From assembly GCA_977020255.1 (NCBI GenBank), contig CDROCS010001981.1, positions 434,001 to 498,000 on the forward strand: DNA of 64,000 nt. The letters are read 5' to 3'. Of this stretch, positions 1 through 32,501 are shown in pieces. The position numbers and the translations under genes were made by a program. Position 1 is the first letter of the stretch. Each line of letters starts with the position of its first letter. The notes below the pieces were generated by a model. That model was not told the origin of the DNA and did not search any database. It worked only from the letters and a program-made list of their open reading frames with translations. The DNA is from Obrimoposthia wandeli (taxonomy: Eukaryota).

Positions 1-22
1 AATTATGAATTAGAAGAATTGT

Positions 23-515
23 TTATCTACATGTCAAGTAATAATAAGAAAGACTGAAACATTTTTTATAAGCGCAATGGTCACTATGATTACGATATGG
101 ACAGCAAATATTTCGTGGAATTTTTAATAGATGATCACGTGAAATATTTAAAGTATTCAACCTCAATTTGGGAAAATATTTTTTTAAAGTCTTATACTTT
201 TTGCCATCCATTTCATCTAAAACATAAAAAATTCCATTTTCTATATCAAAATTAGATGTTATTGTATCGAAAATACATATTTCACAAAAAGCCTTATGTC
301 CTTCTTTCCATTTTAATAAATGAAAGTAATTAGTTATATATAAATAAGTAAATTTTTTCTTATAATCTAAACTTTTAAACGGGATATCTATTTGAAATAT
401 GAAATGCAAAGGATGAAAAACGTCGCATACATCCATAATACATAATTCTTTTATAATATAATCACCATTTTTGTTAATGAAAGCCTCAAAATCTATAATA
501 TATTCCTGCTTAATT
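23..515 (-). CDS. Small DEDD-exonuclease-like protein of the type carried by Polinton/Maverick elements
   Basis: The listed ORF 23..436 extends upstream in frame to EYIIDFEAFINKNGDYIIKELCI (DEDD motif-I-like D-x-E). It continues HLLKWKEG and ends CCPYRNHSDHCA. A possible ATG-AAA mini-exon lies near 580. It is co-oriented with two other ORFs reading away from the terminus at 3741. Confidence 0.55.
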
Positions 516-651
516 ATCTAAATTTGCAGCAAATCCCGTTGTTTATAACGAAAAAATTTATTAAAATAACAAAGTACTTTCATATTAAGATTAGTATATA
601 TTGTCAATTCTCCTATATATTGTAAATAAAGACAAAATAATAATCAAAAAT

Positions 652-972
652 TTATTTTTTTGTAGAAGGACCCTCTTTCGGTTTAATCTGGAGGATTCTC
701 TTTCTTGCTGCTCGCCGAACATCCTCCATCTCTTCTCTTCTTTTTTCATCTACCTTCCTTTTTTCCAATTCGATCTTCTTATTCCACTCCACGATTCGAC
801 GGCGTTCTGCTAGCCTCCTATCCTGTATCTCCACCCGATGATTCCACTCGGTCGCGACAGCAGTATACAAATTTTGATTGAGAACCCTATTTCTTAAGTC
901 CCCTTTCTTCTCATTTATTCTGATGTTTGCTTCAATCTTCGTTACCAAACTCTTCATTTTAATGAATTCCAT
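652..972 (-). CDS. Small charged coiled-coil protein (Polinton accessory ORF)
   Basis: 106-aa E/K/R-rich ORF. A diverged homolog (MEFPEMKRLLTQIE...) at 6346..6489 supports coding status. Confidence 0.55.
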   Translation of the reverse strand: MEFIKMKSLVTKIEANIRINEKKGDLRNRVLNQNLYTAVATEWNHRVEIQDRRLAERRRIVEWNKKIELEKRKVDEKRREEMEDVRRAARKRILQIKPKEGPSTKK

Positions 973-1235
973 TTTTTAATTATGAAGAGGTTAATAAATT
1001 TGAACCTATATGTATAAATTTAAGATATTTTTTAATCCAATTAAATGATATATTTTTATTTATCAAATGAGAGTTTAATAAATCTATAACTTATCATTGC
1101 AAATAAACCTAATAAACTTAAAGATAGTATTTCTAAATTTAAAATTAAAAAATAAATAAATATTAAGAAGAAAACATATGAAATTAATTTTTATAAATTA
1201 TATTCTTAAACATCTTTACGAAGTCATCATTGGGA

Positions 1236-2978
1236 TCATCCAGGATCGAAATCCCTCCGACTAAGTATTATTGGAGAAAGCGGTACTGGTTCCTTCTTCT
1301 TTGGCCGGCCCGGTTTCTTTTTCGCCTTCACCGGTTCTTTTGTAGCAATTGTCCTTTCCTCAGGTTTTGGCAATAGTTGCCGCAACTTTATGGGGGGAGG
1401 TGCAGCCGATGTTGATGGCCCTGACATAGAAGCAGTAGCCTTTCTCTTCCGCGGAGCTTTCTTCTGTTTCTCCTCCTTCTCACGCTGAAGCTGGTGTGAG
1501 ACGGCATCCTGTTGCCCTCGCGAATCTGGAAGCATTGCCGGTGTATCCAGTTCCGCCAGGAATTCGTCCAATCCAGCTTCATCCCAGGCCCTCTTTAAGT
1601 TCTGGCTGGTTGTTGGACGATGAGAAGCCGATGATGTCTCCTGCAGGCGTCGTTGACTTGATGGCGGACTAATCTCGATCGGTGAGACTGGGATCCTCTC
1701 GTATAAAATTGGACTGTCGTCCACTGGAGATGGGAGAATCTCCTGCCGTCCAATCACCGCCTCAGAATAATGACCAATTGAGGTTTTACATTTTCTCGAG
1801 CGCCTCGTCTTCTTCACCTTTGCCCTCTTCGTCCGTTTCCGCGAGAAAGGAGTAATTTCTCCCCAAGTCTCCTCAAATATCGGGACGGGTTCCTGCAAAA
1901 TATTAATAAAATTTAAACATATAAATAATTTACCTCAATGACGGGCAGATTAGCCTGTTTCACCAACTTGGCCTTCTTCAGAGTGTGGGTTTTGACCCGA
2001 TGGCGTTGCGGTTTCTTAACTGCCGCTTGCTTCCTATCCACCGGTTGAATAGGCGTTGCCTCTTCGTGAATGTTCTCCATCTATGTGAATTATTAAATTT
2101 AGTATCTAAATAATTTACCTTAAAATTGTCTGGAGACGCTAGGTATCGAAGCTGACTCCTTGGCAGCTCCTGGCTGCATTGACTCGTCAAGTACTGCGGT
2201 TCAATCAGCCTCTCCGCCATGGTCACTGACGGTGCCAAATCCAGTTGAAGTTTCTGAAAATGAAATTAAAAAACATTTAAAATAAATGATGTCTAACCTC
2301 ATTCGTCGCCTTTATTCTCCTAACAGGAGATTTCGGCCTTTTGAATGGTTCAGGCGCTGTATTATCTGCTTTCAGAGTAGCAGAGGGAGTGAGACCATCC
2401 CAATCGTCGGTGAACAGGTGCCACTCGTCCTCGTCCAATTCTGCAACCATCGAATCGTTGGCTCCTGGGGCTCCGATACTTGGCTGTATCCATTCGTCGA
2501 TGAATGGAGTCAAGTCCTCCTCCCCATCCGACGGTACGTCATCGGTGAACAGCTCCTCGTCTGAGTCTGGTGCGATGACTTTCTCCGGCTGAGACAGCGG
2601 GATCAATTTCCATGGCCAGGATCTTCTTGCTGCTACTGCCGAAGTTGCTGGACGAACAGCTTCTATGTTTTGCCTGGGAGTACAGTCTTCCCAATTCTCA
2701 ATCGAATCCTGACTAGTCAGGTCAATATATTGGGATCTCTGTACCCCGCCTCTCACGTCCATTGGTTCTTCTCTTGGATTTGAGCTGACCAATGAGGCTT
2801 CTTCTTCCAACAGGTTCGCTCTTGTTTCTGCTTCTCCTTCGCTCACCACCGATGAGTCTTGACTATTTAAGTCAATGTATTACGACGGTGGTGGCGTTCG
2901 CTGCTGCACTGGAGAGAGATCCCCATAGAGTTGAACCTCAGTCTCTTCGTCTAGGTCAACGTTGTTGTAGAATGGCAT
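1236..2978 (-). pseudogene. Four-exon gene for a ~539-aa disordered protein (acidic N-terminus with SIM-like YIDL motifs, basic C-terminus with AT-hook-like KKKPGRPKKK); premature TAA at codon 33
   Basis: Exons 2978-2298, 2253-2119, 2080-1934 and 1892-1236 are joined by GT-AG phase-0 introns of 44, 38 and 41 nt, which link the listed ORFs into one frame. TAA at 2880-2882 corresponds to CAG in the second copy. Matching intron positions are visible in the copy at 4.6-6.4 kb. Confidence 0.7.
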
Positions 2979-3012
2979 TGTTGATTTATGAAAAATAATG
3001 AACGGAGGTGTC

Positions 3013-3020
3013 TTTATATA
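3013..3020 (-). promoter_or_regulatory. Candidate TATA box for the four-exon gene
   Basis: TATATAAA on the minus strand, 35 nt upstream of the ATG at 2978. Confidence 0.4.
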
Positions 3021-3299
3021 CACAAATATCTTACTAACCCCTCTTTTATTGTCCAATGAGAGCCTCTTATTTAAATAATTTATTTTTTGTAATGTTTTTC
3101 GTGCCTGGAGATCAAGAATGAAGCCCGCACCGAAGGGGCGGGTGGTGTATGTTAGGGCCTTGGGTATGACACGGGTCGTTTATATTTGTAGTTGTGAGAG
3201 GTAAAGTGATACTGTAACGTATGTATTTGTAGTTATTTTCGTGAGAATAGAGCCCGCCCCGAAGAGGCGGGTGGTGGTCGGTGGGTGTTTCCGTCCAAC

Positions 3300-3557
3300 A
3301 CCCATCGACTTTCACCCATCACCCGTCGACTTTCACCCAACACCCAACGACTTTCGCCCATCACCCAAGGTAGTTCGTGATATACACCAGAGCGAGACAT
3401 TCAGCCATCACCCAAGGTAGTTAGTGATATACACCAGAGCGCGACATTCAGCCATCACCCAAGGTAGTTAGTGATATACACCAGAGCGAGACATTTGGCC
3501 ATCACCCAAGGTAGTTAGTGATATACACCAGAGCGATACATTCGCCCATCACCCAAG
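3300..3557. repeat. Subterminal tandem repeats: 21 bp x3, then 47 bp x4+
   Basis: ACCCATCGACTTTCACCCATC-type units at 3300, 3321 and 3342. CATCACCCAAGGTAGTTAGTGATATACACCAGAGCGAGACATTCAGC units at 3359, 3406, 3453, 3500 and a partial unit at 3547. Confidence 0.9.
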
Positions 3558-3624
3558 CTAGTCTGTGACATATACGAGTCCCGAGCCTTTCGCGCCGATA
3601 GACGCGAAAAAAATGTTCCCCACC

Positions 3625-3698
3625 CTTGTCCTTTAAAACCGTGCATGTGTGTGGAGTGAAATTTCACTCCACACACATGCACGGTTTTAAAGGACAAG
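3625..3698. repeat. Perfect 74-bp palindrome
   Basis: 3625-3661 (CTTGTCCTTTAAAACCGTGCATGTGTGTGGAGTGAAA) is the exact reverse complement of 3662-3698, with no loop. Confidence 0.95.
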
Positions 3699-4579
3699 AA
3701 GGTGGAGGGGGTGTGGATTAGACCGGACACATCCACCTACTCTCGAAATCTCTTTGCCTTCACGATTCTGTATTTACTTCTTGAAATTTCTGCACTTCAG
3801 TAAATGAAATAAATTGTCTTTATATCTTTTTACCTCGTAGCAGATGCGACGAATCTCTCTGTGTTGATTACTACTAAGTGATTCTGCAATTGATATACCG
3901 ATTGGAATACGGGGTGTAATCCTATGACTTGTGCTGCACTGATGTATTATCACTAATGCTGTATCTATTTAACTAGATTCCTTATGGATTATTTTAACTA
4001 AATTTTCTTCTACGACGTCTCTTTTTTCACACTTTTCCTGCTATATATCTACATAATCTTTCAACCTTTTCAGGTCTCAATTTACTTTATGTATATATTT
4101 TAATTATTTCAAGTCTATTTTATTTTAATTAATTTCGACCTAGTCACTAGGTTAAATGTTTGTATAAATAATTGCTATTATTTATTTAAGTATTCCTTAA
4201 TTTAACAATATAGAGTAATGTTTCTTGATTCACATATGTGAGGTGTGTCCATTTATTGCATTTACAGTTTACATAAGTTTAAGTGAATAATAATCAATAG
4301 CATGGAATTTTTTGAATAGCGATAGGTTTTGGATGCTCAAAATTTCCACTTGATCGAATTTGTGAAACAAAATAGAGTCGCAGTGCAACTTAATTTCTTG
4401 CATATACGTGCTTGCTAGAATTATGTTGAAACTAATCGCGAATAGCCTGAAAACCCGACCCTCTGCCCATTTTAACTGACTACCTTTTGATTCCGTAAGT
4501 ATATTTTTGATCGGATTTAAAAAGGCGTCCAAAGAGTGCCAAAAAGAGAAAACAAGTAAAATTACGAAAATGAAGTTAT

Positions 4580-6374
4580 GTCCAACCTAGGATGAAGATA
4601 TGGAGGTTCAGTTGTATGGGGATCTCTCTCCAGTACAGCAGCAAACGCCACCACCGTCGCAGTACATTGACTTACTTAGTCAAGAGTCGTTGGTGGTGAG
4701 CGAAGAAACATCAACAAGAGCGGAGCTGATAAAAGAAGCATCATTGGCTAGCACAACTCTGACAGAAGAATCAATGGGTGAGAGATTGTCAGGATTCGAT
4801 TGAGAATTGGGAAGACTGTACTCCCCAGCAGAATACAGAAGCTGCTCGTCCAGCAACTTCTGCAGAAGCAGCAATGAGATCCAATATATTTGAAAATTTC
4901 AAGGCGGCAACCAAACACCCCTGGAAATTGATCACGCTGTCTCAGCTGGAGATAGTCCTCGCACCGGACTCTGATGAGGAGCTCTTCAGTGATAGGCTAC
5001 CGTCGGATCAAGAATAGAATTTGACTCCATTTTTCGATGAATGGATCCATCCAAGTCTCGGAGCCACTGCCATAAATGAGTCAATGGTGGCAAAATTGAA
5101 CGACGACGAATGGATGGTCTCACTCCATCTGCTACTCCAACTCCGATAGCAGGCAATACGGCAGCTGAACCATTCAGAAGGCCGCAATCTCCGATGCGAG
5201 CAGTTAGGAGAATAAAGACAACAAATGAGGTTAGACTTAATTTATTTCAAATGTTTTTTAATTTCATCTTCAGAAACGTCAACTGGATATAGCACCGTCG
5301 GTAACCACGGTTGAGATGCTGATAGAACTGCAATACTTGGCGAGTCGTTGCAGCCAGGAGCTGCTAAGGAATGAGCTCCATTACCTAGCACCTCCAGATA
5401 ATATCACGTTAAATTATTTTTAATTAGACTTTAAATTTAATAATTCAAATAGGTGGAGAAATTTCTCGAAGAGGCGACGCCTAGTCAACCTGTGGATAAA
5501 AAGCAAGCAGCTGTTAGGAAACCACAACCACATCGGGTCAAAACCCAGACGGTTCACCGGAAAAATGCCAAGTTGGTACAACAGGCAAACCTGCCTGTTA
5601 TTGAGGTGAATTATTTATATGTTTAAATTTTATTAATTTTTTACAGGAACCAGTCCAGATAATTGAGGAGACATGGGGAGAAATTTCTCCTTTCCCGATG
5701 AGACTAATGAAGCAAGCAGATGTGAGGAAGATGAAGCGATCCAGAAAATGTCGCATCATAATGCTCAACACTAGAGAGGCGGTGATTGGCCAACAGGAGT
5801 TTCTCCCATCTCCAGTGGACGACGGGCCAATTTTGTACAAGAAGATACCAGTCTCCGATCGAGATTAGTCCGCTTCCCAGTCAACGACGCCTGCAAGAGA
5901 CGGCACCGGCTCCATTAACCATCAGCCACAATTTGGTCAATTTCTTCTCTGTCAACAGCAAGCCAGAACTTGAAGAGGGCCTGGGATGAAGCTGGATTGG
6001 CCGAATTCTTGGCGGAACTCGATTCTCCACAACCGGCATTGCTTCTAGATTCGAGAGGGCAGCATGATGCAGTCTCATGTCAACTTCAGCGTGAGAAGGA
6101 GGAGAAACTGAAGAAAGATCCGCGGAAGAGGAAGGCTACAAAACCTACAACTTTGTCGACGGGCCATCTACATCTGCTGCACCTCCAAAAAAGATACGAC
6201 AACTCCTGCCAAAAACCTCAAGGAACGGCAATTGCTGCACAATAACTGGTGAAGCCGAAAAAGAAACCTGACCGACCAAAGAAGAAGGAGCCAGTGCCGC
6301 TTACTCCTATACCACTCAGTCGGAGGGATATCGATGAGAATGATCTCAATGCTTCTCATACCACTCTGCTCTGA
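4580..6374 (+). pseudogene. Inverted, decayed paralog of the four-exon disordered-protein gene
   Basis: Colinear homology to 1236-2978 (VQLYGDLSPVQQ, QYIDL, IENWEDCTPQQN, APDSDEELF, KRAWDEAGL, KKKPDRPKKKEPVPL) with several frameshifts and stops. Confidence 0.85.
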
Positions 6375-6489
6375 CAATCTTAAACAAATTAAGATTTAAA
6401 ACTTGCTGTTGCAGGTCTCTTTTCTTTAAATTCTTCTTATAATTTTTCTCTATTTGTGTCAATAGCCTCTTCATTTCTGGAAATTCCAT
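6346..6489 (-). pseudogene. Truncated paralog of the coiled-coil ORF at 652..972
   Basis: MEFPEMKRLLTQIEKNYKKNLKKRDLQQQVLNLNLFKIVRAEW aligns with MEFIKMKSLVTKIEANIRINEKKGDLRNRVLNQNLYTAVATEW. Confidence 0.75.
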
Positions 6490-6569
6490 TTTTAAAATAA
6501 TGAAAGGTAACTAAACTTTTCTTTTTTATAGTCTTTTCTATCTAATTGATTTTATTGATGTGTTAAAAC

Positions 6570-6935: not shown

Positions 6936-6939
6936 CATT

Positions 6940-7260
6940 TTAAATAGGATCATGATCACGTACTAAATCTCTAGAGATTTTATAATAAAGGTAACATATG
7001 CGATACGCTTGAAAAGCTACCTGATTTTCATTTGTCATTGGAGCTTGAATATTATTTCTCCAAAAATATGCAACAATTTCATTGAGAATTTCCGTTTATT
7101 TAACAATAAAGTTGGTAGCACAATCTAAACCGAAACAACATTCCAACTGCAATGGGAGTATGTATATGTTTAACAGTCACATCAGGTTCTAAAATACTTT
7201 CAAAATGAGCGTAAACTACAAAAGGAGGTTGATTTATTATCCGGCATAGTGAATAAAGTT
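6940..7260 (-). pseudogene. Remnant of protein-primed DNA polymerase B (Polinton type), exonuclease/endonuclease-VII-like region
   Basis: QPPFVVYAHFESILEP...KHIHTP (compare PFVIYADFESIL) followed by APMTNENQVAFQAYRICYLYYK...LVRDHD (compare ICHIC...VRDHCH). Confidence 0.7.
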
Positions 7261-7765
7261 GTAGTAACAGTATAAAATTACAATGAATTTTATGTTTATC
7301 ATAAGCAGCCACAGTTCGAAAACCAAAAAGACATTTTGAACCCCAATAAAGTTGTAAACCATAACTTTAACAATTAAATAATCTATTTAAATTAGGAACA
7401 CCACGATAATGATAAATATTACAGTCTTCTATCAATATTAAATTTACAATTTGATTACATTCCCATAAATTATACTAACATTGAGATATTTCGCCACATC
7501 TTTAATCAGGTATTTACTTTTAATTTCAGAATACTTAAAAACTGTAATTGCTATTTAGTTATCACGTTCAAATTGAGGTATTGAGGCTAAGAGCATAGGA
7601 CCTGGCTGAAATTTTAACTCATTTAAATATTGCTCATAAGAAGATGATCGATCTCTACGAAAACCTTCATCGTGTTTTAATACGCTAAGGATAGCATAGA
7701 TAAAACATTTATTATCATCGTTTTTACATTGATTATTGACTAAATATGATTTAATATAGACTTTT

Positions 7766-7826
7766 TAGGCACTATAGTGTTGGAGGGCTTTGACGCTTTG
7801 GTTTAGTACCGACACTATATACTACT
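7766..7826. repeat. Short hairpin-type dispersed repeat, same family as 33024..33110
   Basis: Shares the 3' arm GTACCGACACTATATACTACT with 33089-33109. The 5' arm is imperfectly complementary. Confidence 0.55.
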
Positions 7827-8229
7827 TTAATGAAAACAAATTAGAGTTACAGAAATTGAGCGAGAGTGTAAGTGAGGAAGTTTATGGTTCAATAATAATC
7901 AACGCAAAATAAATTTTTAATTATTTAACTTTAATTATTAGTTGACAACATCAAATATTTCATAATACGAATATTCAGTATATTTCAACAGTATAAAAAA
8001 TTATACGTTATTATTTATGTGTTTTGTGTCCAATGATTGTATCTTTAAACAACAAAAAAAACATTTAAATTTTAAAATTAATTGCTGCACGGTGGGGTCT
8101 GCTAATAACATAATTTTCAAAGTTATGTTATTTTTCGAATATTAGTGATTCTTTCATGTTTTTTAAAATTAATTTTAAATTAAATATTCCAAAATTACTT
8201 CTAAAATTAATTCTAAAATTAATTCTAAA

Positions 8230-8415
8230 TCCTGTGTTTTCACACTTTAAAGCGGTTTTGGTTGAATGACTTATTAGGGCATTAAGGGATAAATTAAAGA
8301 AACATTTTGTTGCAATTGGATCAAAAAAATTGGTAGAGGTACTACCTAAACTGTTAATTTCATATAATCACTCATCACATCGCGGTTTAGATGGTAAGAA
8401 ACCTATATTTTACTA
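8230..8415 (+). pseudogene. Remnant of Polinton retroviral-type integrase (C-terminal core)
   Basis: KAVLVE*LIRALRDKLKKHF...LVEVLPKLLISYNHSSHRGL matches the Polinton pattern KASIVERFNRTLK...YIDVLPKLV.SYN...H. Confidence 0.75.
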
Positions 8416-8615
8416 AATATATGGAACCCGAAAATTATATTTTAATCGATTAGGTACATCATTCAACTTTGATGATAGGTTGGGTAATGTACTGTTTGAT
8501 GGTGTCTTAATTAGTGTTTTTTTAGACTAAAACATCATTAACAGTCATATAATGAAATACATTATCAACAAGCATTTTAAAAAATCAAAAACCTATATTT
8601 GTTTATAAGAAACTT

Positions 8616-9058
8616 TCAAGAAAAAAATACAATAGACTCAACATGACAATGATAATCAAAATATTTAATACCATGAATAATCACTTTTCCACTAGCAAAT
8701 ACATTAACACATATAGGATCAAACTTTAAAATACTGAGTATTGGAAACAATTCTGGCTCAAATATACAATTTCTTCCCATTTTCACAAATATCTTATACA
8801 AATTAACTTTCTTGTTGATATTCACTAGGATAATAAGAGATTGCTTACGTTCAATTTCTATATTTTGGACATGTTTGATTGGTTGTTTGCAACCCATAAT
8901 CCTGCATGAGCCTAAATAGTAGTAGTAGTATAATAATAATACTTGATGGAAATATAACAATAGTATAATCTTTTAACTTTTCAACATATTGTATAGGTTT
9001 CTTCGATCGAAAAGGTAAGTGACTAACACTTCCCTTAAATTTGCTTTATAATTTATAT
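8616..9058 (-). pseudogene. TBP-like (TATA-binding-protein fold) gene, two exons, frameshift in exon 1
   Basis: Exon 2 encodes SCRIMGCK...FEPELFP...VNVFASGKVIIHGIK (compare TBP YEPELFPG...LIFVSGKVVLTGAK). Exon 1 encodes NINYKANL...DYTIVIFPS. A 31-nt GT-AG phase-1 intron lies at 8912-8942. Confidence 0.75.
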
Positions 9059-11782
9059 TGATTATTTTTATTATATGATAATAATTAAAGATGTCCCAGA
9101 CTTATATAGTTTAATATTATCCAATGAGAATCGACAATCAATCAAGATTCATGTATCCAACGATAACTATCAAAATATTTAAGTTTTCTCTCATTAATAA
9201 ATTTCAATTTAAAATTTGAAGAGCATGAAGAAAAAGAAGAAATACATTTTAAATACAACCAAGTTTAACACGATCCATATAGATTACGATGATACGGAAT
9301 TAGAATATATTTTCAGTGAAAACCCTGTTTAATGAAGCTGTACCTTATTTCAGTTATTCAATGAATTTCCTCAAGACACCTGTTTAATATGGATTTCAAT
9401 ACCCCGTTATGCTAACAAAGTCAAAGTTTGATTATGTCATATCAAGAATCCATATTACAGATACTATATACTAATTTAGAGTTATTTTATTCTGCTTTGC
9501 TTAATGCACTTGATACAAAATTATTAGATGGCTTTCTTCTGATATTACTGTCTCTGTTGTATTCTGTGAGACGTCTGCTGTTAATACAACTTTCTTTTCA
9601 ATGCTTTATGGTTACACAACCGGATAACTATAAACACCGTATGTCTTCGCAAAATTTAAGGTTCAACACATTTTATTTTTTAATTATGCGACATTAAGTC
9701 ATATTACGATTTTAATCAATAAACAATTGAAATTTCAAATCGATAAATACCTATGAAAAACTGTGCTGGTAGTTCAGTAGTACAAGAATGGATGTTCTGC
9801 AATAAAAGTTATCAAAAGCTACTGTATTCAACACGGATTAAAGTCAAAGAAATCATTTTCAAAAAGTCGACATTTATTAAATAAAGTTGGTGAGGTAGGA
9901 AGATAAAACAGCTTTGACATTTTTCTCATGTTGTGCATATTTTGAGTCTACTATACATTGTTTTTGTGATAATACTTTGTTGAAAAATTTGGTTACGTTT
10001 CGTGATTTGAATACTATGTCATAAATCACCCGACTCTACGATATTATTTGTTATCTCAGTAAAGGCTGCAAGCGGTTATTCTGGATACCCACAGATTCGA
10101 GAAGACTATTCGTATTTATTGATTAACCCGGATCAGAACTGATTAGTGAAGATTGAAACGCATAGCAGCTTTGAACTTGAGTATCTTCTTATATGTTTTG
10201 AATATAACTTAATAAGAGTTTACATCTTAGGGAGTTGCATGTCTGGTAAATACACAAATCATTCCGGTATACTCGTATCTCTAGCGAGTCATATCCACCA
10301 ACCCAGTACAAGCCTGTTCGGCATATTTATATTTCCCAACTACAACATCAGATACCACATTGTTACAGCAAATAAGACTCGAAAGAAGCTACTGTAAACA
10401 ATAAAATTAATATCACTAAATATAATCATCTCACGAACCACGTTATTTGATATTTTCTGCAGTTGATTATAAATCAAATAATATAAATGTAATAAGATTA
10501 ACATTATTGAAATACTTATGAACTACATGGAGATACTTCTAACGTGTACTGAAACAGTTAGCATATTACGACATGATCCATTATTAAATAATGAAGTACA
10601 TTAGTTCTTGTCGATTGAAAGCTTTGCCCTACTGTACTGGAAAGATACTCAGACTGGGTAATTTATTTTAGGATTATGTTTATGAGGAAACCGTAAAAGA
10701 AGCCTAGAAATAGGTCAACAAAGGTACCGGCGTTGGTATTTTTAATGAGAATTTTGTTTCTCTAGATTTTACTCAATAAAGTTTCTAAAATTGTTAATTT
10801 TTATTAATATTTGAAACAATTCTCATTAATACACTTTAAATTGTTAACATTTTGATTTATGTATACAATAAATAAAAATACAAGTATCTGTGAACCAAAA
10901 TGTATTATTTTATCAAAGTTATTTAAGCATACGAAAATTGTACTAAATAACATTTTCAAATGTAAAAATGTTTTCATTAGAAATCAATTACATAATACCA
11001 GTGATAAGTTAATTACTTTTTAATTAAATTAATAGTTTTATATACATAAGTTTATATTAAATTACATTTTATTTAATTTTGATAATAAGAACTGTCTATA
11101 TGAAAAATATGTAAAACAGTTTGAATGTCAACTAAATCCCAAAATTGTATGAAAATTAAATGCAGAAAATATATTGTTATAAATTAAAAAGAAATTACAG
11201 ATTTGTTTATATTATATCCGTGCTTCATGCAAGTAAAATTAAAGACCAAATATCTCTCAGAAAAGAAAAGTCAGATCCGTTAGGTGGATTATCTATACAG
11301 TTGTAAACGTCAGCATATTAAAGTACGCAATAGTGAAAAATAAACGATTTCCACTCTCAGCATTGAAGTGAATAAAGAAGGATGTGAATTTTCAAAGACG
11401 GATTTTACAAATTCATTATCTGCACGCAGTCTTCAGTCATCTAAGTACTAAAAATAAGACTTCACTACATGTAAAACGTTATAAGTTTAAAATTAAATAA
11501 AACAATTACGATAATCAAACACACGCAAATAATAATGTGGCCCTCAAAAATTGGGCATTAGAATAAAATGAACAATACTGTACAAAAGGTAGTGTCAGTG
11601 AACAAAGATAAACTGCAACATTCACAACAAAATCATGACTTTCTGTTCGGTATATTAAGACAAAACTAAATTCCGGGTATATGTTTCAAGTTGAGACAAC
11701 TGTATACATAAATGTTGTCTTTAGCAAAATTATGAAGACAGATAGGAGTGCAGTGGTGACAAAGCAACATATATACGGTGGA

Positions 11783-16135: not shown

Positions 16136-16152
16136 TTATCCTCATTATACTC

Positions 16153-16270
16153 AGTAGGATGATGTATCCAGTCTAATCTACCCCTCCCCTAACCAGAGGG
16201 TAACACTGTCCTTTAAAACCATGCATGTGTGTGGTGTGAAATTTTGTGCATGTGTACATGAATTTCACAT
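16153..16270. mobile_element. Left terminus of a Polinton-like element (family 1)
   Basis: Begins AGTAGGATGATGTATCCAGTCTAATC and contains CACTGTCCTTTAAAACCATGCATGTGTGTGG..TGAAATTT. It is inverted relative to the termini at 32501 and 39473, but has no matching 6-bp TSD with either. Confidence 0.75.
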
Positions 16271-20130: not shown

Positions 20131-20267
20131 TGAAGTAATATTTCTGACTATTATAAACTGATTCTTATATACTATTTGAAAATATATTTTTAGACCACAT
20201 GTGATATCTTTGATCAATTGTTTATCCCGTGAAATCATATAATTTTTAATCGTCTAATGATAATTGT

Positions 20268-21162: not shown

Positions 21163-21325
21163 TTTTAAATATTAAATTAACTTGCTAATTATATAATACT
21201 TATTTTGTTAAGTAGTTAGTTTAATTATATTTAGTAAATTCAATACTACTTTGTTTTATGAGTAGTTAAATAAAATTAGGTTTAATTTTTACAAGTATAT
21301 AGTTAACTAGTAGTAAGTAGCAAAT

Positions 21326-21693
21326 GCTTTTGAGGCAGACTTGGCAGCAAACACTGAGAGACTGCAGAGTATCCAGGGCTCAGGACAAAGATTGATGGAC
21401 AAAGGTCAGTGCATGGGCCAAGAAAGTGCCGTCGACGAGAGAATCATCAAGCTCACCGATCAGTGGAATTATCTGGTAACCAAGTCCAAGGATAAGGCCG
21501 AGAAACTACAAGAAGCCAACAAGCAGGCTGTTTACAATGCCGAGTTATAGGACATATTTTTCTGACTAGAAGAGGTGGAACATTCTCTCTCGAGTCCTGA
21601 CTATGGAAAGGAATCTGCATCTGTGGACAGTCTTTTATCTAAGCATCAAGTTCTGGGAACAGATATCCATATTCATAATGACTGCATCAAGCC
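21326..21693 (+). pseudogene. Intronless alpha-spectrin fragment (parts of two spectrin repeats)
   Basis: AFEADLAANTERLQSI...LMDKGQCMGQESAV...DQWNYL...KLQEANKQ...LEEVE...DYGKESASVDSLLSKHQVL is typical alpha-spectrin. It is one frame with two nonsense codons. Confidence 0.85.
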
Positions 21694-21905
21694 GAGTATG
21701 GAGATTTTCCGAAACATTGATGAGAATTGTCATCCAGGCAATCGGGAGTACCTTCTTGATTATAACAGCACTGGAGAGTCAACGTTTCTGAAGTTGTTGT
21801 TGAAGCAGTTGAAGCCAAATAACGGAGATGTATTTTGCAACAATAAAACCAAGGTTGGATACTTCAACATCGTATATGGATTGAACTTCGAGCAGACATG
21901 GCTGT
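21694..21905 (+). pseudogene. ABC-F family ATPase fragment fused in frame to the spectrin fragment
   Basis: IFRNID...PGNR..LL.YNSTGESTFLKLLLKQLKPNNGDV...KVGYFN resembles the second NBD of ABCF (GKSTLLKLL.G.L.P..G.V.....IGYF.Q). Confidence 0.65.
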
Positions 21906-22029
21906 GGAATCTCCATGACAGAATTGACTCGGTCGCAACGCTTAAACAATGATTAAGGTTGAATAATGAGTTAGAAGAAGCGTGAGCTGCGAAAGTGACT
22001 GAATAACAGCGAACAATTGAAATGTATGT

Positions 22030-22737
22030 GCGAAATGGTGCCTACTTGGGTTAGAAGTGCTAAATGAATGAACACTGAAAACCGTTGCAGGAAGGACAAC
22101 TGGTGTGAAAATTAGAAGGGGAAAATGAGCAAGGAGTATGGCCTCTAGGAAAGATCAAAGAGTTAAGGAGAAACAAGGGATTTGAAGCGAGAAGCCGTGT
22201 AGCAGTTGTAGGGTGTAAAGGGTACGTACGACCAGTAGCAAAATTGTGTACACTAGAAGTAGAGAGAGGGAAAGCATGAGGGAAAGAGAGGGGATGACTA
22301 ATGTATAGACTGAGTCCGTTATGCGTTGGACAGGTCATCAGGTAAACACTGTCTCCAGAGTGGGCTTAAAGTTGCACAGTAGGCCATGCCCCGAATATGA
22401 CTATATATTGATAAACATATGGAACAGTTTTGATCAAAGGGAATGGGATATTCCGACATGACGTCGGATATTTTAGCATTGGGTCGGAGTTTCTTTCACC
22501 TACATTGTCCTTACTGGAGGGGTTATAAACTGGTTTGCGGGATTTGTGTGTTAACAGCTTGGCTGCATTGAGAGGGGGTATAAATATGTTCATCGTTATA
22601 TTATGAAAACTATGTGAATTATGATTAACTACTGTTATGGAATTTTTATTAATATTATTGAAGAAATAAAGTTTGTATTTGAAAATTTGAAGAAATTAAT
22701 TGTATTCATTAGTTTTTTGGATAATGGAAACCCAACA
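22030..22737 (+). mobile_element. BEL/Pao retrotransposon 3' end: integrase tail, polypurine tract and putative LTR (22302..22737)
   Basis: EGQLV*KLEGENEQGVWPLGKIKEL...YVRPVAKLCTLE (DUF5641-like), a purine-rich tract at ~22260-22295, then TGT...CCCAACA containing TATAAA and AATAAA. Confidence 0.65.
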
Positions 22738-23659
22738 ATATTAATATTGTTAATATGAATATCGAAAATATATATCAAGATGTGACCAAATATGATGAAT
22801 ATGGAATGCATTTTTGAATAAACCTCAACACTATAATTTTATTTTTCCTATCAACTTAGAGGAGCTTAAATTTTATTACCAGGTTTTAGATTTACTTCAG
22901 TAGATGTGGATAGAATCAATATCTTCCTCAATCAAATCGGAATCAAATATAAAATTCAAGAAAAAAAAAGTATAATCAAAGGAAAATATGCCATTTTCAA
23001 GCGGAAGAATGGTGTATTATTCGAAAAACCTATCCCTAGATTGTTTGAAAAGTCTACGTCAGAATTCAAGGAAACAAGATCGCACTCAATGGATCGGGGA
23101 CACCTTTATAAAAATAGTTGAGGCTGTTAGAGCTGATATTAAAATTTTTATATTTGTATCTTTATTTATTAGCTCATTTGTATCATATTTGATAAATAAC
23201 ATTGATAAAAAATTCTTGATTTGAAGGTCCACCTTGTCAATTCTCAAATATGAAAGCAATTTATTGTAAGGACTAACGTATTTTAATAACACTTTATTGT
23301 ACCATAGAAACTAAAATAAAATAGTTGTTATCGTTTATTTTTGGAAAAAACTAATACACTTATATGAATACAAAGTTGAAATGTAAAAACGTAAATAGAA
23401 AGTTAAACTTTATTTTTCAGATCAAAATGCTATATAAATTTATGTCTACTTCTAGTGTACTTCTGGTTACCATTACGGGTCACACAGAGGGTTATTGATG
23501 ATATCAAATAAAGCTAGAGCCGTGATGTGACCGGCCTGTATTTCTTTTATTATTTAAAAACCTACAGAGAAAATAAGGCCGTAACAGGTCTATAATTTCA
23601 ATGTTGAAATTAATGAAAAATATTTAGAATTTTCAATTAACGTCACAACCTTTCTGAGG

Positions 23660-25038: not shown

Positions 25039-25740
25039 ACTTCGCAAAGATAACTTCATTAAAATATTAGACAATCTACAACTGCATGCTTACACAGCTT
25101 TAAAATAAATGTGGTTTACTATTTTTTTGTTTCAAAAACTTTCACTAATCCATAATAAATAAAGATCCTTCATTGGCTATGCGATAGACTAAGTTGTAGC
25201 GTGCTTCAAAGGCCTTGTATCCGATACACATTGCATTATTATTGATAATAGATGTTGGATGTTTGTTTTAATATTCGACAATCCGTAAAACGGCAGAATT
25301 TGAATATATCGTTCTCCACTCCATCTTGGAATTAACTACAAGCTATTTCGGATATGAAGGAATTGGAAACCATCAGCACTTTCGATGGGACTTCGCAAAG
25401 ATAACTTCATTAAAATATTAGACAATCTACAACTGCATGCTTACACAGCTTTAAAATAAATGTGGTTTACTATTTTTTTGTTTCAAAAACTTTCACTAAT
25501 CCATAATAAATAAAGATCCTTCATTGGCTATGCGATAGACTAAGTTGTAGCGTGCTTCAAAGGCCTTGTATCCGATACACATTGCATTATTATTGATAAT
25601 AGATGTTGGATGTTTGTTTTAATATTCGACAATCCGTAAAACGGCAGAATTTGAATATATCGTTCTCCACTCCATCTTGGAATTAACTACAAGCTATTTC
25701 GGATATGAAGGAATTGGAAACCATCAGCACTTTCGATGGG
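25039..25740. repeat. 351-bp tandem duplication spanning flank, 5' LTR and gag start
   Basis: 25039-25389 and 25390-25740 read as identical. Confidence 0.9.
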
Positions 25741-26345
25741 ACGTCGAATGTGGATGAGTGAATTAGTGAGATCAAATTGAAGGCCGATCTGCTTGGACTG
25801 GAGAAGAAATTAAGTTCAATTATTCCGCTGAGAATGAAAGGTGAATGTTTAGAATTTAGAAGAAGACGAAAATAGGACGCAGAATCAATTATGAAGCGAT
25901 TAAGGGATACCTATGGGATGGGTCAGCTCGAGGCGTTCAAGCGATTCAGTCAAAGGAAGTGGTACCTCGGAGAATCAGTCGATCGGTTCACGTCGGAATT
26001 GAAAAGTTTGGCATCTAAGATTGGTATGGGAGATAACATTGAAAAATTGGTGCTAGTCGCTGGCCTGCCTTCAGACACTTCAGAAGCTCTGGAAATTTCG
26101 ATGAAGTGTGGATACTGTTCCTTAGATCAAGTTATAGCTGAAGTCCGGACTAGGATGACAAAATAAATTGGAATTGAAGGTATCTTCCAAGTTGTAGCTG
26201 TTCATCATAGAAAAAGAATAATTAATTGAGGAATCAAATGCTTCCGATGTGGAGATGAAGGCCATGTTTCTAGAAACTGATATGTGGAAGAAAAACAAAG
26301 ATGCTACATCTGTAATATAGTTGGTCACTTGGCGCCATTATGTCC
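25705..26345 (+). pseudogene. gag: gag with two CCHC zinc knuckles
   Basis: ATG 13 nt after the LTR; WYLGESVDRF; CFRCGDEGHVSRN* and CYICNIVGHLAPLC. Contains stops and frameshifts. Confidence 0.8.
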
Positions 26346-26399
26346 CAAACGAGAATCAAAAACCACTAAGGGAGTCCGTATGCGCCAGCGGCTCTCCCA

Positions 26400-29181
26400 G
26401 TAATATGTCGTATATTCCAACTGTTATCATCCAAAAAAAAGAAGAAGCTTTGAAAGCAATGGTTGATACGGGATGTTCGAGATCTATTCTTTCGGATGCG
26501 TTGACAGTCAAAGGATTAATCACAAATTTTGATCATAACATAATATTAATGAACGGAGAAAATGTAAATTCGAGGAAGTGCATGGAATGTGAAGTTAATG
26601 TCAATGGACGTAAAATTCGGCTAAATTACATCGTTTCTCGTATAGTACCTGGCTATGACATGTTGTTGGGAATGGATGCTGTCAATATACTTGGTGGAAT
26701 TTAGGTAAGTGGTGATGGAAAGAATGTTAAGTTTGGCCTATTCAATGATGTATATGCGGTATCAGATTCATCGAATCCGGTTGGAGTCGATGATCATGTG
26801 AATGTGCTTCCGGGCAAACAGTTCTTTTTAGAACTAACAATTGATTGTGCGATGGAAGAAATAGTAGGATGTGGTTCCACAGTGAATAGTACATTCAAGT
26901 CAACGGATGAAACTTGTGTACATGAAGGAGGAATGAAAAAATCCCATTCATGGAGAAGTCGTGGATGTCGTGGATAAGGATTTCCATGCAAAGTTCGAGA
27001 ATGGAAGATGGATCGCGAGATGGGAATGGAAAGAAGGAATCGTGAAGCCAGCTCTACAGAACCAGGTGAGTCAATATCGGGTAAAGGACGAGGTACTAAA
27101 TCAATTTGAAGAAGAGATTGAAGAATGGATAGAACAAGGTTGGCTGAGAAAGTATGATGATGAGCACACTGGTGTAATACCTCTCATAGCCGTTCTACAG
27201 CAAAACAAAGGAAACGTTCGTCGTGTGATGGATTATGGAGAGCTTAACGATTATGTTTCAAGCCATACAGCTAAAAGTGAAGTATGTGGCGAAAAGCTGA
27301 GAGAATGGAGGAGATTGGGAGACAACTTGAGCATTGTGGATTTAAGGAAGGCTTATCTACAAATTCATATTGACCCAACTTTGTGGAAATATCAGGTTGT
27401 AGTTTACAAAGGAGTTCGATACTGTTTAACGCGTCTTGGTTTTGGACTCAACGTAGCTCCAAAGATTATGTCAGTAATCGTAAGGTAGGTTTTGTCAATG
27501 GATCAGACGGTGGCAAGTGTAACGGATTCTTATGTAGATGATATAGTTGTTAATGAAGAGATAGTATCTACTGAAGAGGTTATCAATATGTTATTAAAGT
27601 ACGGTTTAGAATCGAAGCCACCAGAAAAGCTGAATGGTGGTAGAGTGCTGGGATTGCGAATTCATCAAAACCAAAATGTGATGGTATGGAAGCGCGACAA
27701 TATACTGGCTAAAGGGAATGACAATTTAACGCGAAGGCAAATGTTTTCTCATTGCAGTCAGATGATTGGACACTTTCCCAAAGCTGGATGGTTGAGACTG
27801 GCGTGTAGTTATTTGAAAAGATTGACAAACGGTACTAATTGGGAAGACAACGTCGAGAGTAAAATCGTTGAAAAGCAGAAAGAAATTGAGGAACGTGTTT
27901 CGGAAAACGATCTTGTGCGAGGAGTTTGGAAAGTGACTGATACGATTGAAGGAACAGTTTGGTGTGATGCTAGCAGTCTCGCAATTGGAGTCGTAGTGGA
28001 TATTGATAGTTCGGTAGTTGAAGACTTCAGTTGGTTGCGGAAGGAAGATGACTTCTCTCACATCAATTTGGCAGAGTTAGAAGCAGTTGTCAAATGACTT
28101 AATTGTGTGATCAAATGGAGGCTGTCGCGAATTCTTGTTTATACAAATTTGTCTACGGTTCATGGCTGGGTAAAGTCAATTACATCGGGAGACAAATGAG
28201 TAAAAACGCATGGTCTTGGATCGGCATTAGCGTATAGGCGACTGAATCTATTGAAAACCATAATAGAAGAATGCAGACTAACTGTTAATATCAGGCTAGT
28301 AAAGTCAGCAGGAAACAAAGCTGATGAGCTTACCAGAGTGTCCCAAAAGCGTGGCCTGCAGTAGCGTAATCGGCAATGAAGCATAAATATTGGCAGTGCA
28401 CAACCTGAATCATCTTGGCATTGACAGAACAACGTATCTTTTAAAATGTCAGTATCCTGAACTCAATGTGAAACGAGAAGAAGTAGCAGCTGTCGTATAA
28501 CGCTGTTTTAAATGTAAAAGTATAGATCCAGCATCAATTCGCTGGGAACATGATGAGTTATCAGTTGATGCAAATTGGAGTCGATTGGCCTGTGATGTAA
28601 CCCATTATTTAGGGAAGTGTTACTTATCCATTATCAATTGTGGACCAAGCCGATTCACCATATGGAAGTTGCTCAATGATGAGACACATTATTCAGTGAC
28701 TACCGCCATGACCGATGTCTTCAGAGAACACGGGTCTCCAGATGAGTTGTTGATGGATAATAACCCAACCTTTAAGTCACGGCATTTTCAAAACGCTTGT
28801 GGATCATGGAAGGTCAAGTGTGTGTTTCGATGTGCTTATCGACCATCAGGAAATGGGATAGTGGAACGTGTTCACAGAACCGTCAAACGAATGGCTGCCA
28901 GAAGCGATGCAGATATTCGCGACATGTGTTTTTGGTATAATGTTTCTCCGAAATGTAGTAACAAGGACAATTCTGTTCCCGTGCGAGAACTGTTTACATA
29001 CGAATGGCGATATCCAAACGTTGAACCAAATTTGTCGACATTTCAAAACATTACAGGTTACAACATGGATCAGGCTGTATTTGTCAAACCTCCCAATGTG
29101 CGTTGCACATCAGTTTGGCCTAAGGGAGTAATTACTGGTTTGAGTGGAGCAACGCAGGTAGAAATCGACGTAATTCCTTGA
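26400..29181 (+). pseudogene. pol: pol (protease, reverse transcriptase, RNase H, integrase)
   Basis: AMVDTGCS (PR); VDLRKAYLQI, LGFGLNVAP, YVDDI (RT); WCDASSLAIG, HINLAELEAV (RH); HHLGIDRT, LACDVTH, LLMDN, GNGIVERVHRT (IN). Multiple in-frame stops. Confidence 0.92.
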
Positions 29182-32100
29182 CACGTGGCCGACGTCAGAC
29201 CGATTCCAATACCACTACCAGAACGGCCAGAGACAAATGCAAATGTAGGAGAAAAATAAGTGGCTTCCGATGATGCCAGAGAATGCCCACAAAGGGCCGT
29301 ACGGCGACCGGCCTATTTAGAAGACTATGTGTGATCTAGAGATCAAGGGGGATTGTTGTTGGATGTTTGTTTTAATATTCGACAATCCGTAAAACGGCAG
29401 AATTTGAATATATCGTTTTCCACGCCATCTTGGATTTAACTACAATAGTATTATTGTTGGTCTTTTTAAATAGAAAAATGACATTTTAAGTGTATTTATA
29501 TACTTTTTATTTATCAATTTTCTTAATAATTTGATTTTCATATTTGTTATTCTTTTTTTCATATTTATAATTATTTTGTAAAAACAATTTAAATAAAAAA
29601 TACATTTTATTATTAAATAAAATAAGAAAATGAGACAATGTACCATGACAATTACAAGCAACCTTTCTCTGAACATCAAGTTTAGTCGAGAAGAATGGAG
29701 GCAAATTCTGAAACGGAATAAAACTATCAAAGGTGTATTTAATAATGTTGATCTTACGATGAGGCAAAAAGCACTATAAATGTAACATCAACTTTATTTA
29801 GCTTATTTTTGTGTTAAGCTAAGTATTTATTAAAATTTAGTTATGTCCAAATTATAAACGTATGATCCTTATTTAGAAATTCTTAGTTGTGTTATCGGTA
29901 GAGATTACGAGCCCCGATAGTTCATGCAAGTAGTGAGACCCGTGGTCCAATTCCCGGTTACGAACCCTAAATTGGCTTAGAAAAAGATTCGATTTGATAT
30001 ATCGTATAACCAAATTAACTCAAATATAACTCAAATTCTTTCTTATTAGTAGAGAAATTCAATGTTGAAAATTATAGAAACTATTATGGATTTTGATCAT
30101 ACAAAGAAATATTTACATGTCACCTTTTTTATCACACCAAATGGGCAAAGTGACATGGTTACTTAAATGAGATAATTTTGGTCTTTTTAAAGATGTAGAA
30201 ATAATTTCTTTATTCTAATAAAACTGTACTCCCGATTTTCTCAATATACATTTTCTTAGAATCATATTCTATGGAATAAAAAAGAAGCAATTGACTATTT
30301 TCATTTATTTATGGCCAAATGTTAATTTTATAAGTTTAAAATTGATGACTAGAATAAAAAATTGTAAAGTATAAATTTGACAGTTAATCCTCCAAATTTC
30401 GGTAAATTTTCTATTTTAAATAAGCAAATATCGACAAGATATATTAGACATTTATTTTATCATTTACATAAATAATTTGAAATTTATATAGTAAAATTTA
30501 ACTCTCGGATAATGAGAATTTAAGAAATCTATTAATGGATATAGTTAATAAATTCATGCTAAACTTCTGTGATGGAACTTTAAAAAATTTAATTGAAAAG
30601 AGTAAAGAATATTTAATCTAATGAAAAAAATAGAATTACCTTAGTCCTCAATTATCAACTCAATATTAACTTCAGTTTTATTTAACCTACCAAAAAAATA
30701 AGAACTTATAAGGCATGAATTAAGGTTTTAATTTTATTAATAGGTCAATTGTCAATATTATTTAAACAATGTTGGTTACATTTCTCTCCTACTTAACTTT
30801 AGCGACTATTATCCGAATCATAATAGATAATGCATCTTACTCAAACTAGCGGCACTAAATACGATGTTCAAAAACTGTTTAATTGCCAAAAATATCCTGC
30901 TTGCATAAAAATTCAAAAACATTGATATGACCATATTTATGCAAAAGGTCTTGAAATTCCAACTCTTGAATTGATGTTTTATGATTTCAACTGTCTCGGC
31001 AAAGCGTTAGTTAGTAATGAACTCGCTTTGGTGCTCTAGCCTTTAATTAAAAAAAAATAAAAAGAGAAAATAAAAAGAGACTGTATTGAAGCAAATTCAA
31101 TTTCTTGTGATTGATTTGATTATAAAGTTACCAAGAATCAATTTATTGTCGTATATGATAGTACGTTCCCTTGAAATCCAGTTAAGCTATCATATACTAA
31201 ATATGGATGAGTTATATTCATATAAAATCATATAAATATGTATACACAACTTGTATTTCTGCATAAATTGACCAAAGTTTCTACTGTAAATAGCAAATTT
31301 ACATATGGGCTGCGAAATATTTGCACGCACACAGAAGTACTGAGATACTAATCCTAATTGAGCAAGAATATGCAAATGGAATAATGAGGAAAACTAACCT
31401 TCGTAGTCTATCATCCCATCACCGTCCTGGTCTGCCTCAGTCACCATTTCTTCTGCCTCTTCTTCGCTCATCTTATCCCCACGAGTCATCAGGATACGTC
31501 TATAACAGCCAAAAAATATCACTTACCTACAAGCTATCTTTCAGAGGTGGACGAACTTATGAGACAGATAAATAATATTACGTAACATCGTCTGATTTAA
31601 GAGATTCATTGCTAACTTTTATTTTAAAATTTAGAAATATTTTTGATATGCATTATTTAATTTAATTTTATGAGGTGAGCAGTATACAGTGACGATTCAG
31701 TGGCATTGCAGCACAACACTTTTAATGTCATTTCCAACTTTCCAATTATCCATAAAAATATGTTCATCAGATCCGATAGCCAATATCCAATTGTTGCATG
31801 ATTTCATTCAATTGTTTAACGTCTTCATGATAACTTTGATGATGAAATCAAACTAGATTTTATTCAATTTGACATGAATGGAGAAGATATATTTTTCTGG
31901 ATTATTCAATAATTCAATCCATAGTAATGATAAGGATCTTGAAGTTGTGGTTTCTTCAATTTGATGGCATCATTGGAGATATCACAATATAAATGTTAAA
32001 TAAAATACTTGCAACTGTTCTTTAAATAAATTGCGTTAGTAAAAGTTATTCGAAATATCGTAGTATTTTGATAATATTTTGTCGACTTTGTGTAGTTGGA

Positions 32101-32199
32101 GGGGTAAAGATATTGAAGCTAAAAAATCTAGCATTTTGAGTGTATCTGGATATACATACTTACACAGAATTTTTTTTTCGCGACCCTGTATGTATATTG

Positions 32200-32501
32200 T
32201 TTACCGGGTTTATGCATGCCCGAAGGGCAGGCGTTGGCCCTCTGATGGTCTCTCAGGCACTTCGAATTTCAGTACACCACTTTCACCACTGTACCATTCC
32301 CGCCAGTTAACTGCACTTGTGCAGTTGAAAAGTGTATATATGTCTCAGGACATGTATAGAATTTTATTCACTCACATGCTGGAAATTCCACTTGACACAC
32401 ATGCAGGAAATTTCATTCCACACACATGCACGGTTTTAAAGGACAGTGATACCATCCCCCACGGGGGAGGGAGTGGATTAGACCGGACATAACCACCTAC
32501 T
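32200..32501. mobile_element. Right terminal region of a Polinton-like element (family 1)
   Basis: Ends ...GGATTAGACCGGACATAACCACCTACT at 32501. Contains the family-1 subterminal motif and a CCCCCACGGGGG hairpin. Confidence 0.75.

Follow-up and report, generated by a model that had tools for sequence, protein, structure and literature searches.

A reduced TATA-binding protein and a private TATAAAC(A/G) box as a candidate late-gene switch in Polintons of Obrimoposthia wandeli

Polintons, or Mavericks, treated as adintoviruses in PMC8502044, are described as elements of 12-16 kb with AG-type terminal inverted repeats (TIRs), a 6-bp target site duplication (TSD), pPolB, an rve integrase, an A32-type ATPase and a C5 protease, a plan that the elements studied here share. 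IAP and Bcl2 homologues have been reported in adintoviruses (Starrett et al. 2021, PMC8502044, and its preprint), and in the section of that paper on non-animal datasets the label 'TBP', for TATA-binding protein, stands in the legend of a figure that covers MELD viruses and related elements; PMC13193136 provides background only. Here we analyse relics of such elements in the first 32.5 kb of a 64,000-nucleotide window of the AT-rich, 1.35-Gb genome of Obrimoposthia wandeli (contig CDROCS010001981.1, positions 434,001 to 498,000; G000:C1981:434001-498000), together with related copies. These elements encode a reduced TBP and carry a private promoter-like box, TATAAAC(A/G), that goes with it. 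This pairing is the strongest feature of the locus, and was absent from a preliminary description of the stretch. Judging from sequence comparison, the element TBP has probably acquired an altered specificity and probably switches on packaging and capsid genes through this box. We found no description in PMC8502044 of a clade-wide reduced TBP with fixed substitutions on its predicted DNA face, a matching private box or intron-containing genes.

Among herpesviruses, a vTBP/TATT late system is represented by BcRF1 of Epstein-Barr virus (EBV), ORF24 of KSHV (Kaposi's sarcoma-associated herpesvirus) and UL87 of human cytomegalovirus (HCMV) (PMC4893493). By analogy, the beta- and gamma-herpesvirus systems would share with the Polinton case a virus-coded TBP fold, a one-base TATA variant at structural genes and dependence on the host's Pol II (RNA polymerase II). 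The herpesvirus vTBPs are large proteins of a six-member viral complex, recognise TATT (position 4) and belong to an unrelated virus group, whereas the Polinton protein is a stand-alone TBP core of 150 aa and the variant base is C7. Herpesvirus-type partner proteins were absent from the element open reading frames (ORFs) scanned, and vTBPs themselves appeared only as weak fold hits (rank 27). The element TBP likely resembles the herpesvirus vTBP system in how it works, as an analogue and not a member.

Giant viruses with TBP-like proteins mostly encode their own RNA polymerase. Their proteins (BFVD matches; B263R of African swine fever virus (ASFV), PMC5825884) likewise have a viral TBP fold, some with three phenylalanines, but share 8-20% sequence identity with the element TBP. 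Cellular TBPs have in common with it the two-repeat saddle, the EPELFP stirrup, three of the four intercalating phenylalanines and the first NIV asparagine. Unlike them, the element protein has a repeat 1 that in the model is without both helices and is also missing the first phenylalanine, lacks an N-terminal extension, and carries V>R, T>M, N>S/T and L>N replacements on its predicted concave face.

It is near certain that this reduced TBP is a conserved gene of one Polinton clade. Fetched genome copies were sorted into six families (A, B, B2, C, C2 and D), all of which share a TBP of roughly 150 aa, as do metagenomic relatives. In a random draw of 20 TBP loci, taken from about 80 rows that followed the host-type rows, 19 adjoin Polinton core genes and one an SSB (single-strand DNA-binding protein) gene only. 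Metagenomic TBP loci (n=50) have core genes in 20 cases and a DEDD-like or SSB gene in 18 more, the remaining 12 being contigs of 1.0-1.6 kb. The 70 close homologues are mostly 145-165 aa long, and some 140 more representatives (50% clustering), a few cellular TBPs included, came from a profile search. A structural model (pLDDT 95.7) forms a two-repeat saddle that can be aligned with TBP structures from end to end (E about 4e-9, TM about 0.7; comparison entries Pfam PF00352 and PDB 1cdw, 1ytb and 1qn3).

Residue conservation was counted over 186 of 212 proteins, the other 26, most of them family members, having been dropped by a motif filter. N4, F39, E98, F100 and F116 are kept in 96-99%, with 98-99% for the three phenylalanines and E98. 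The acidic C-terminal stirrup, which is the TFIIB contact, is also retained (E/D96 97%, E98 98%). With the first intercalating phenylalanine gone, three of the canonical four remain. In place of host-type V, T, N and L stand R45 (97%), M47 (98%), S/T69 and N114 (97%), positions that we place on the DNA face from known TBP structure. Because these replacements are fixed across homologues, they suggest a new specificity rather than decay.

The box has a distinct sequence. The TATA consensus is T1-A2-T3-A4-W5-A6-W7-R8, and in the wider set YWTAWADN, C is the sole base barred at position 7; the second phenylalanine pair enters at step 7/8 (PMC1935006). TATAAAC(A/G) is therefore a non-consensus box, its C at position 7 lying outside the TATA consensus. 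Across families and metagenomic elements it is found upstream of the ATPase, ORF139, ORF90, a core-type ORF, the major capsid gene and the DEDD-like gene; boxed genes are mostly those for packaging and putative capsids. Ordinary TATATAA(A/G) or TATAAAA boxes stand instead before the TBP gene in four lineages, a four-exon gene, one SSB gene and the family D IAP.

The box is promoter-like in strand and spacing. In 20 segments TATAAAC occurs 111 times on the virion strand and 18 times on the other, against an expectation of 27; in 16 segments an ORF start lies at +32..44 for 38 of 115 TATAAAC sites (background 1%), compared with 1/114 for TATAAAA, 2/53 for TATAAAG and 3/91 for TATAAAT. The segments are mutually related, so these counts are not independent events. 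A de novo search upstream of starts returned ATAAACA as the top word, present at 27 of 117 starts with 1.1 expected. Distant Polintons (L205/L206/L208) have no TATAAAC and seven TATAAA(A/T) among 41 starts, whereas this clade has 42 and nine, respectively, among 225 starts; at the matching place in the ATPase end the distant elements carry TATAAAAG.

Could the TATAAACA box instead signal translation or a 3' end, or simply result from coding constraint and a high AT content? It often falls within the final codons (YKQ, INK) of the gene upstream, and the TATAAA hexamer is part of it. The overlapping Tyr-Lys codons at the ATPase end are TAT-AAA in 11 of 11 ATPases, for which a rough codon-frequency product is 0.005. 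Yet its spacing to the ATG downstream is fixed, intergenic DNA and more than one reading frame contain it as well, synonymous positions at the box are fixed, and equally AT-rich variants lack such spacing. We consider a signal of this kind quite improbable.

If the altered-specificity TBP does act through the box, the order of events may be as follows. Genes that have an ordinary TATA box, namely those for the TBP itself, the four-exon protein, an SSB and the family D IAP, would be transcribed by Pol II with host TBP. The element TBP would then bind TATAAAC(A/G), with its C at position 7 and presumably with its divergent N-terminal repeat at the 3' half of the box (step 7/8), and could recruit host TFIIB and Pol II through the retained acidic stirrup. 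The outcome would be late expression of ATPase, core and capsid genes, in a two-phase early-to-late switch run on host RNA polymerase.

Several observations weigh against such a switch. Integrase, minor capsid and protease genes often have no box at -32..-44, for two thirds of the TATAAAC sites the +32..44 interval is without an ORF start, and the box also precedes non-structural genes (the DEDD-like ORF, one SSB gene and the family C IAP). DNA binding by the element TBP could be weak or need a partner, because its N-terminal repeat has lost both helices and one phenylalanine. The control Polintons L205/L206/L208 are few, partial and related to each other. No same-clade Polinton without a TBP was found in viral-contig scans (TBP, capsid, ATPase) or phage records, and a genome search with PF03175 for TBP-less controls gave family B in 12 of the 12 loci read. 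In vitro, EBV BcRF1 makes no difference between TATA and TATT in binding, so discrimination need not reside in a viral TBP itself (PMC4893493).

The host, further, has two divergent intronless TBP-related genes and additional paralogues that could read the box. The box may thus be a real core promoter whose reader is host TBP or one of its host paralogues, or else a different protein of the element, while the element TBP is employed elsewhere, as a decoy titrating TFIIB or TBP regulators or as a repressor of host or early promoters; the loss of the convex helices from its repeat 1 is consistent with this. We regard this alternative as possible but unlikely: the box accompanies this TBP type across the available control Polintons, the replacements at the predicted DNA face hold throughout the 186 homologues and so do not look like decay, and no box stands at any of 38 non-Polinton ORF starts in the genome (75 of 393 near Polinton genes).

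Recognition of the box by the element TBP would make the two a natural altered-specificity TBP-promoter pair, orthogonal to that of the host, and would imply a regulated, virion-producing phase in Polintons. The strategy of the herpesvirus vTBP would also have arisen a second time, independently and in a much simpler form. Whether a widespread clade of integrating animal DNA viruses of 12-16 kb did evolve a one-protein late switch independently of herpesviruses, by reprogramming a 150-aa TBP for TATAAAC(A/G), we judge to be evenly balanced. For Polinton gene timing and virion production, the TBP and its box mark candidate late genes from sequence alone. From expression of the element TBP one would also be able to predict when copies numbering thousands in the genome could become active.

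What has already been published is the occurrence of IAPs in adintoviruses and a TBP label. The openly readable literature, which leaves subscription papers, Repbase, figures and preprint supplements outside it, yielded no report of a TBP in Polintons coupled to a late box, and none of the papers listed in one of the searches contained TATAAAC. By term search, four recent papers on Polintons and viral horizontal gene transfer made no mention of TBP or TATA, and another was without the word 'transcription'. The TBP-box switch was accordingly not found in print, and a prior annotation may exist.

In its first 32.5 kb the window itself contains, besides relics of the A, C and D families, one more terminus relic, a long terminal repeat (LTR) element and a zinc-finger gene of host-like type. 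Positions 1-3741 belong to family A (94.5% to copy L048) and 4585-6555 to an older A-type piece; 6942-9453 is a family C copy, deleted and partly inverted, and 17297-23167 a diverged family D copy, with an A-type end at 16153-16865 and another end at 31721-32501. The mapped features are as follows.

23-517, minus: family A DEDD-like ORF with D-x-E motif, ending in C-x4-H-x3-C; its start codon is lost, and neither Pfam nor PDB gives a match
540-547, minus: TATAAACA box upstream of the DEDD-like ORF, 36 nt before the ATG in an intact copy
652-975, minus: family A charged 106-aa ORF, no Pfam match
1236-2978, minus: family A four-exon disordered gene, young copy; introns 2254-2297, 2081-2118 and 1893-1933; early stop
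3013-3020, minus: canonical TATATAAA box of the four-exon gene
3348-3741, minus: family A terminus, AGTAGGTGGATGT, which carries 47-bp subterminal repeats as well as a palindrome
4585-6555, plus: second, older, broken four-exon copy and start of the charged ORF
6942-7738, minus: family C pPolB remnant
8232-8521, plus: inverted family C fragment, an integrase piece (remnant 8232-8406, plus) and a pPolB-side piece
8600-8607, minus: TATAAACA box at the end of TBP1, ahead of the family C IAP (deleted here)
8607-9110, minus: family C TBP-like gene (TBP1), broken, two exons; short intron about 8912-8942 that contains a variable TAY repeat; its ORF 8616-8972 (minus) has a Pfam TBP match, E 1.6e-7
9246-9462, plus: family C OB-fold SSB-like gene remnant
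16153-16865, no strand assigned: family A-type terminus and SSB-like ORF remnant (16553-16863, minus), separate from the family D piece
17297-17850, minus: family D remnants downstream of the ATPase, integrase start and ORF139 region
17850-18510, minus: family D packaging ATPase remnant (A32-type, 17850-18493), with a TATAAACA box at 18503-18510 upstream
17878-17885, minus: second TATAAACA box in the family D ATPase relic, in the last ATPase codons before the next ORF
18800-19460, minus: family D relic of a dual-specificity-phosphatase-like ORF, for which another copy gives DSPc E 6e-8
about 19600-20090, minus: family D TBP-like gene (TBP2), broken, two exons
20268-20990, minus: family D IAP (BIR and RING), broken; matches weak in the window
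22736-23167, plus: family D OB-fold SSB-like gene remnant
31721-32501, minus: SSB-like remnant and further AGTAG terminus, without TSD pairing with 16153

Relic TATAAAC-type boxes survive at 547, 8607, 17885, 18510 and 19079. AGTAG termini lie at 3741, 16153, 32501 and 39473 and have about 100 bp in common; the ends at 16153 and 32501 share no TSD, and no TSD pair was found among the window's own ends of this type.

Outside the window the plan of the families can be read from better copies. Family A, up to about 16 kb, has a left part that reads from terminus through four-exon gene, charged ORF and DEDD-like ORF to pPolB; in the part that faces it, protease, major capsid, minor capsid, integrase, ORF139, ATPase, ORF90 and TBP follow in map order, read the opposite way, and then two SSB-like genes. 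Its TSDs are TATAAT, ATAGAT and CACAAT, and the TSD-bounded copies have no IAP. In families B (TSD ATCGTT) and B2 (TSD AATGAT), pPolB diverges from a series that runs from TBP, SSB and ATPase to the DEDD-like gene. Families C and C2 have an SSB gene, then TBP, IAP, ORF90, ATPase and onward, and no paired ends were found for them among the fetched copies. Family D (about 16 kb) runs from IAP, TBP, phosphatase-like ORF and ATPase to the DEDD-like gene and pPolB, has its own type of terminus, AGTAGGTAGATGT, and TSDs GTTACT, ACAGTC, ATCATC and TATATA, with no four-exon gene in TSD-bounded copies. TSD-flanked copies that hold a TBP number three in A, one in B, one in B2 and four in D (one TSD of low complexity), and TIRs starting AG with a 6-bp TSD are present in these other copies of A, B, B2 and D. 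Three further end pairs were without a clean TSD (L051/L052 none, L151/L152 none, L153/L219 one mismatch). The L151/L152 pair bounds a family D copy with identical, inverted flanks, from recombination or an assembly artefact.

Core genes were recognised by Pfam: pPolB (PF03175, 1.7e-14), which carries an endonuclease VII domain, rve integrase (PF00665, 6e-10) and A32-type ATPase (PF04665, 1e-5), while the C5 protease match (PF00770, 0.002) is under the curated cut-off. Putative capsid ORFs of about 410 and 340 aa, candidates for the double and single jelly-roll proteins expected of Polintons, lie between integrase and protease and are kept in relatives; they have no Pfam match, and their major and minor labels are presumed from position and size. 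A small conserved Met-Gly ORF overlaps the integrase start in another frame (L061 2990-3250; L187 5714-6043; L096 3362-3658) and has a box about 33-35 nt upstream in L061, L020 and L078. The integrase may be read from the transcript of this ORF.

First-look candidates in the genome, loosely counted, number 1,319 (terminus), 28,890 (TBP1), 17,762 (four-exon gene), 14,656 (IAP) and 16,198 (pPolB); with TBP1, the IAP and the four-exon gene as queries, 150 of the 150 candidates scored matched in each case. The relics share the window with host-like genes and with transposons of other kinds, so the TBP-like, IAP and four-exon genes might be thought ordinary host paralogues near Polinton debris. This is scarcely credible, and we reject it: each gene has at least 150 copies and lies inside TSD-bounded elements, and 19 of the 20 random TBP loci adjoin core genes. 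Host TBP genes are distinct. A Pfam TBP search ranks about ten host-type rows first, and six loci from these rows encode canonical or TRF-like TBPs that the element TBP queries did not hit.

The preliminary description had recognised pPolB, integrase and ATPase remnants, two TBP-like ORFs, BIR/RING remnants, AGTAG termini and two four-exon copies, all of which are present. Its proposal that TBP-like, IAP, four-exon and DEDD-like genes are Polinton cargo is borne out, each being found inside copies bounded by TIRs and 6-bp TSDs, and copies with paired TSDs, for which it had called, were identified in families A, B, B2 and D. It had further joined TBP, an immediate-early (IE)-like spliced transactivator, IAP and DEDD-like ORF into one module of a single Polinton lineage, oriented toward the terminus at 16153. 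In its favour, Polintons carry each of the four gene types, the four-exon protein has an acidic N-terminus, a basic C-terminus and runs resembling nuclear localisation signals (NLS), and a family A TBP is found beyond the window edge, at about 2 kb from the window four-exon copy. A single lineage is nonetheless highly improbable. TSD-bounded family A lacks the IAP and TSD-bounded family D the four-exon gene; no examined family has both; and the end at 16153 belongs to another family, is followed by a family-A-type SSB gene and does not bound the IAP-TBP-ATPase piece. The ATPase and TBP trees place the relics in different element families: the window ATPase and TBP2 group with family D, TBP1 with family C. 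The window pieces derive from at least three families within a single Polinton clade of very high copy number, not from one element. In the ATPase tree all genome families and metagenomic relatives group together (100/100), to the exclusion of three distant elements; the trees lack resolution at depth and the host TBP row covers repeat 1 only, so we make no claim on TBP root or origin.

TBP is present in all families examined. Nearly every copy, with a few exceptions, also has OB-fold SSB genes, and most families have the DEDD-like ORF, whereas particular families add an IAP, the four-exon protein or the phosphatase-like ORF. The four-exon gene has conserved GT-AG introns of 44, 38 and 41 nt, all of phase 0, and encodes 555-561 aa when spliced in three distinct intact copies (233-235 aa unspliced); other copies tested are broken at various points. 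The two window copies are inverted relative to each other, 75% identical and both broken, the first with a stop at codon 33. The protein is rich in P, S and E and has no Pfam match, no LxCxE or PxDLS motif and no homologue among the proteins of 128-408 aa searched. Homology thus lends the 'IE-like' label no support; its composition and canonical TATA box are what was observed, and from these a regulatory role is plausible. Four sequencing runs over the gene are DNA-like, with no intron joint among the 15 joints listed from a set that has 307 more, and are uninformative on expression.

The IAP, found in families C, C2 and D, has a BIR domain (E 1e-13) and a C-terminal RING (E 7e-7 to 2e-13) in better copies, and open frames of 341 aa in many. 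The SSB-like genes form a small paralogous family in the genome families and many relatives. Their model (pLDDT 93.9) has a fold like T7 gp2.5-type SSBs, with matches to Enc34 SSB (Z 7.6; rmsd 3.0, 105 aligned), DUF2815 (7.5), T7 gp2.5 (7.0) and ASFV CP312R (6.8), moderate values as Z is under 8, and giant-virus hits are at E 1e-5. Of the DEDD-like ORF, the D-x-E and Cys/His motifs stand, conserved in 12 sequences, and one homologue was found; there is no Pfam or PDB match, and a Maelstrom profile search was blank, as were its controls. The label appears to reflect motifs only. Neither a TFIIB Pfam match nor an RNA polymerase was found among the element ORFs scanned, a set that excluded some small ORFs. 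Genes for ubiquitin-conjugating enzymes and dual-specificity phosphatases occur in or beside clade members (L076 225-722; L148 3422-3937; L070 3975-4316; L151 2752-3222); the family D phosphatase is, by eye, without the usual catalytic motif.

Further observations concern TBP genes. The same phase-1 intron interrupts the TBP gene in families A, C, C2 and D and in one metagenomic element (L022, L052, L115, L149, L178, L096), and is absent from B, B2 and most metagenomic copies. The host set (L163-L168) comprises one canonical gene, an adjacent head-to-head or tail-to-tail paralogue and further fragments; it includes the two divergent intronless genes, and the host TBP N-terminus is rich in proline and threonine. 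Together with C2H2 and spectrin-repeat genes and short introns, this host-like TBP suggests an animal genome. The distant Polinton L205, on a contig binned with a bacterial genome, has a near-canonical two-repeat TBP (10809-12713; Pfam E 1.5e-36) between two ORFs, with ordinary TATA boxes, possibly a separate TBP capture.

Immediately left of the window, the family A copy goes on with its own TBP, a 90-aa ORF and ATPase (L209 7526-8821); an internal deletion joins this ATPase to the 5' part of pPolB, and a family C2 relic follows in L210. Between the relics of the window lies an intact 408-aa host-like C2H2 zinc-finger ORF (11783-13009, minus), and a broken spectrin-repeat fragment fused to an ABC-like piece (21317-21952, plus) is inserted within the family D relic. 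A broken Gypsy-type LTR element with protease, reverse transcriptase-like and rve ORFs occupies 25039-29445, with a 351-bp direct repeat duplicated at its left end. Beyond these, 33592-35826 is a 2.2-kb non-autonomous Polinton-type element (AGTAGG TIRs, internal 99-bp repeats, TSD ATGTAT), and an end related to it lies at about 47.3-48.5 kb. Tandem arrays with units of 35, 38/39 and 31-42 bp fill 41.6-46.1 kb, and a 344-aa Cys-rich ORF at 60122-61153 (plus) is RING-like by eye.

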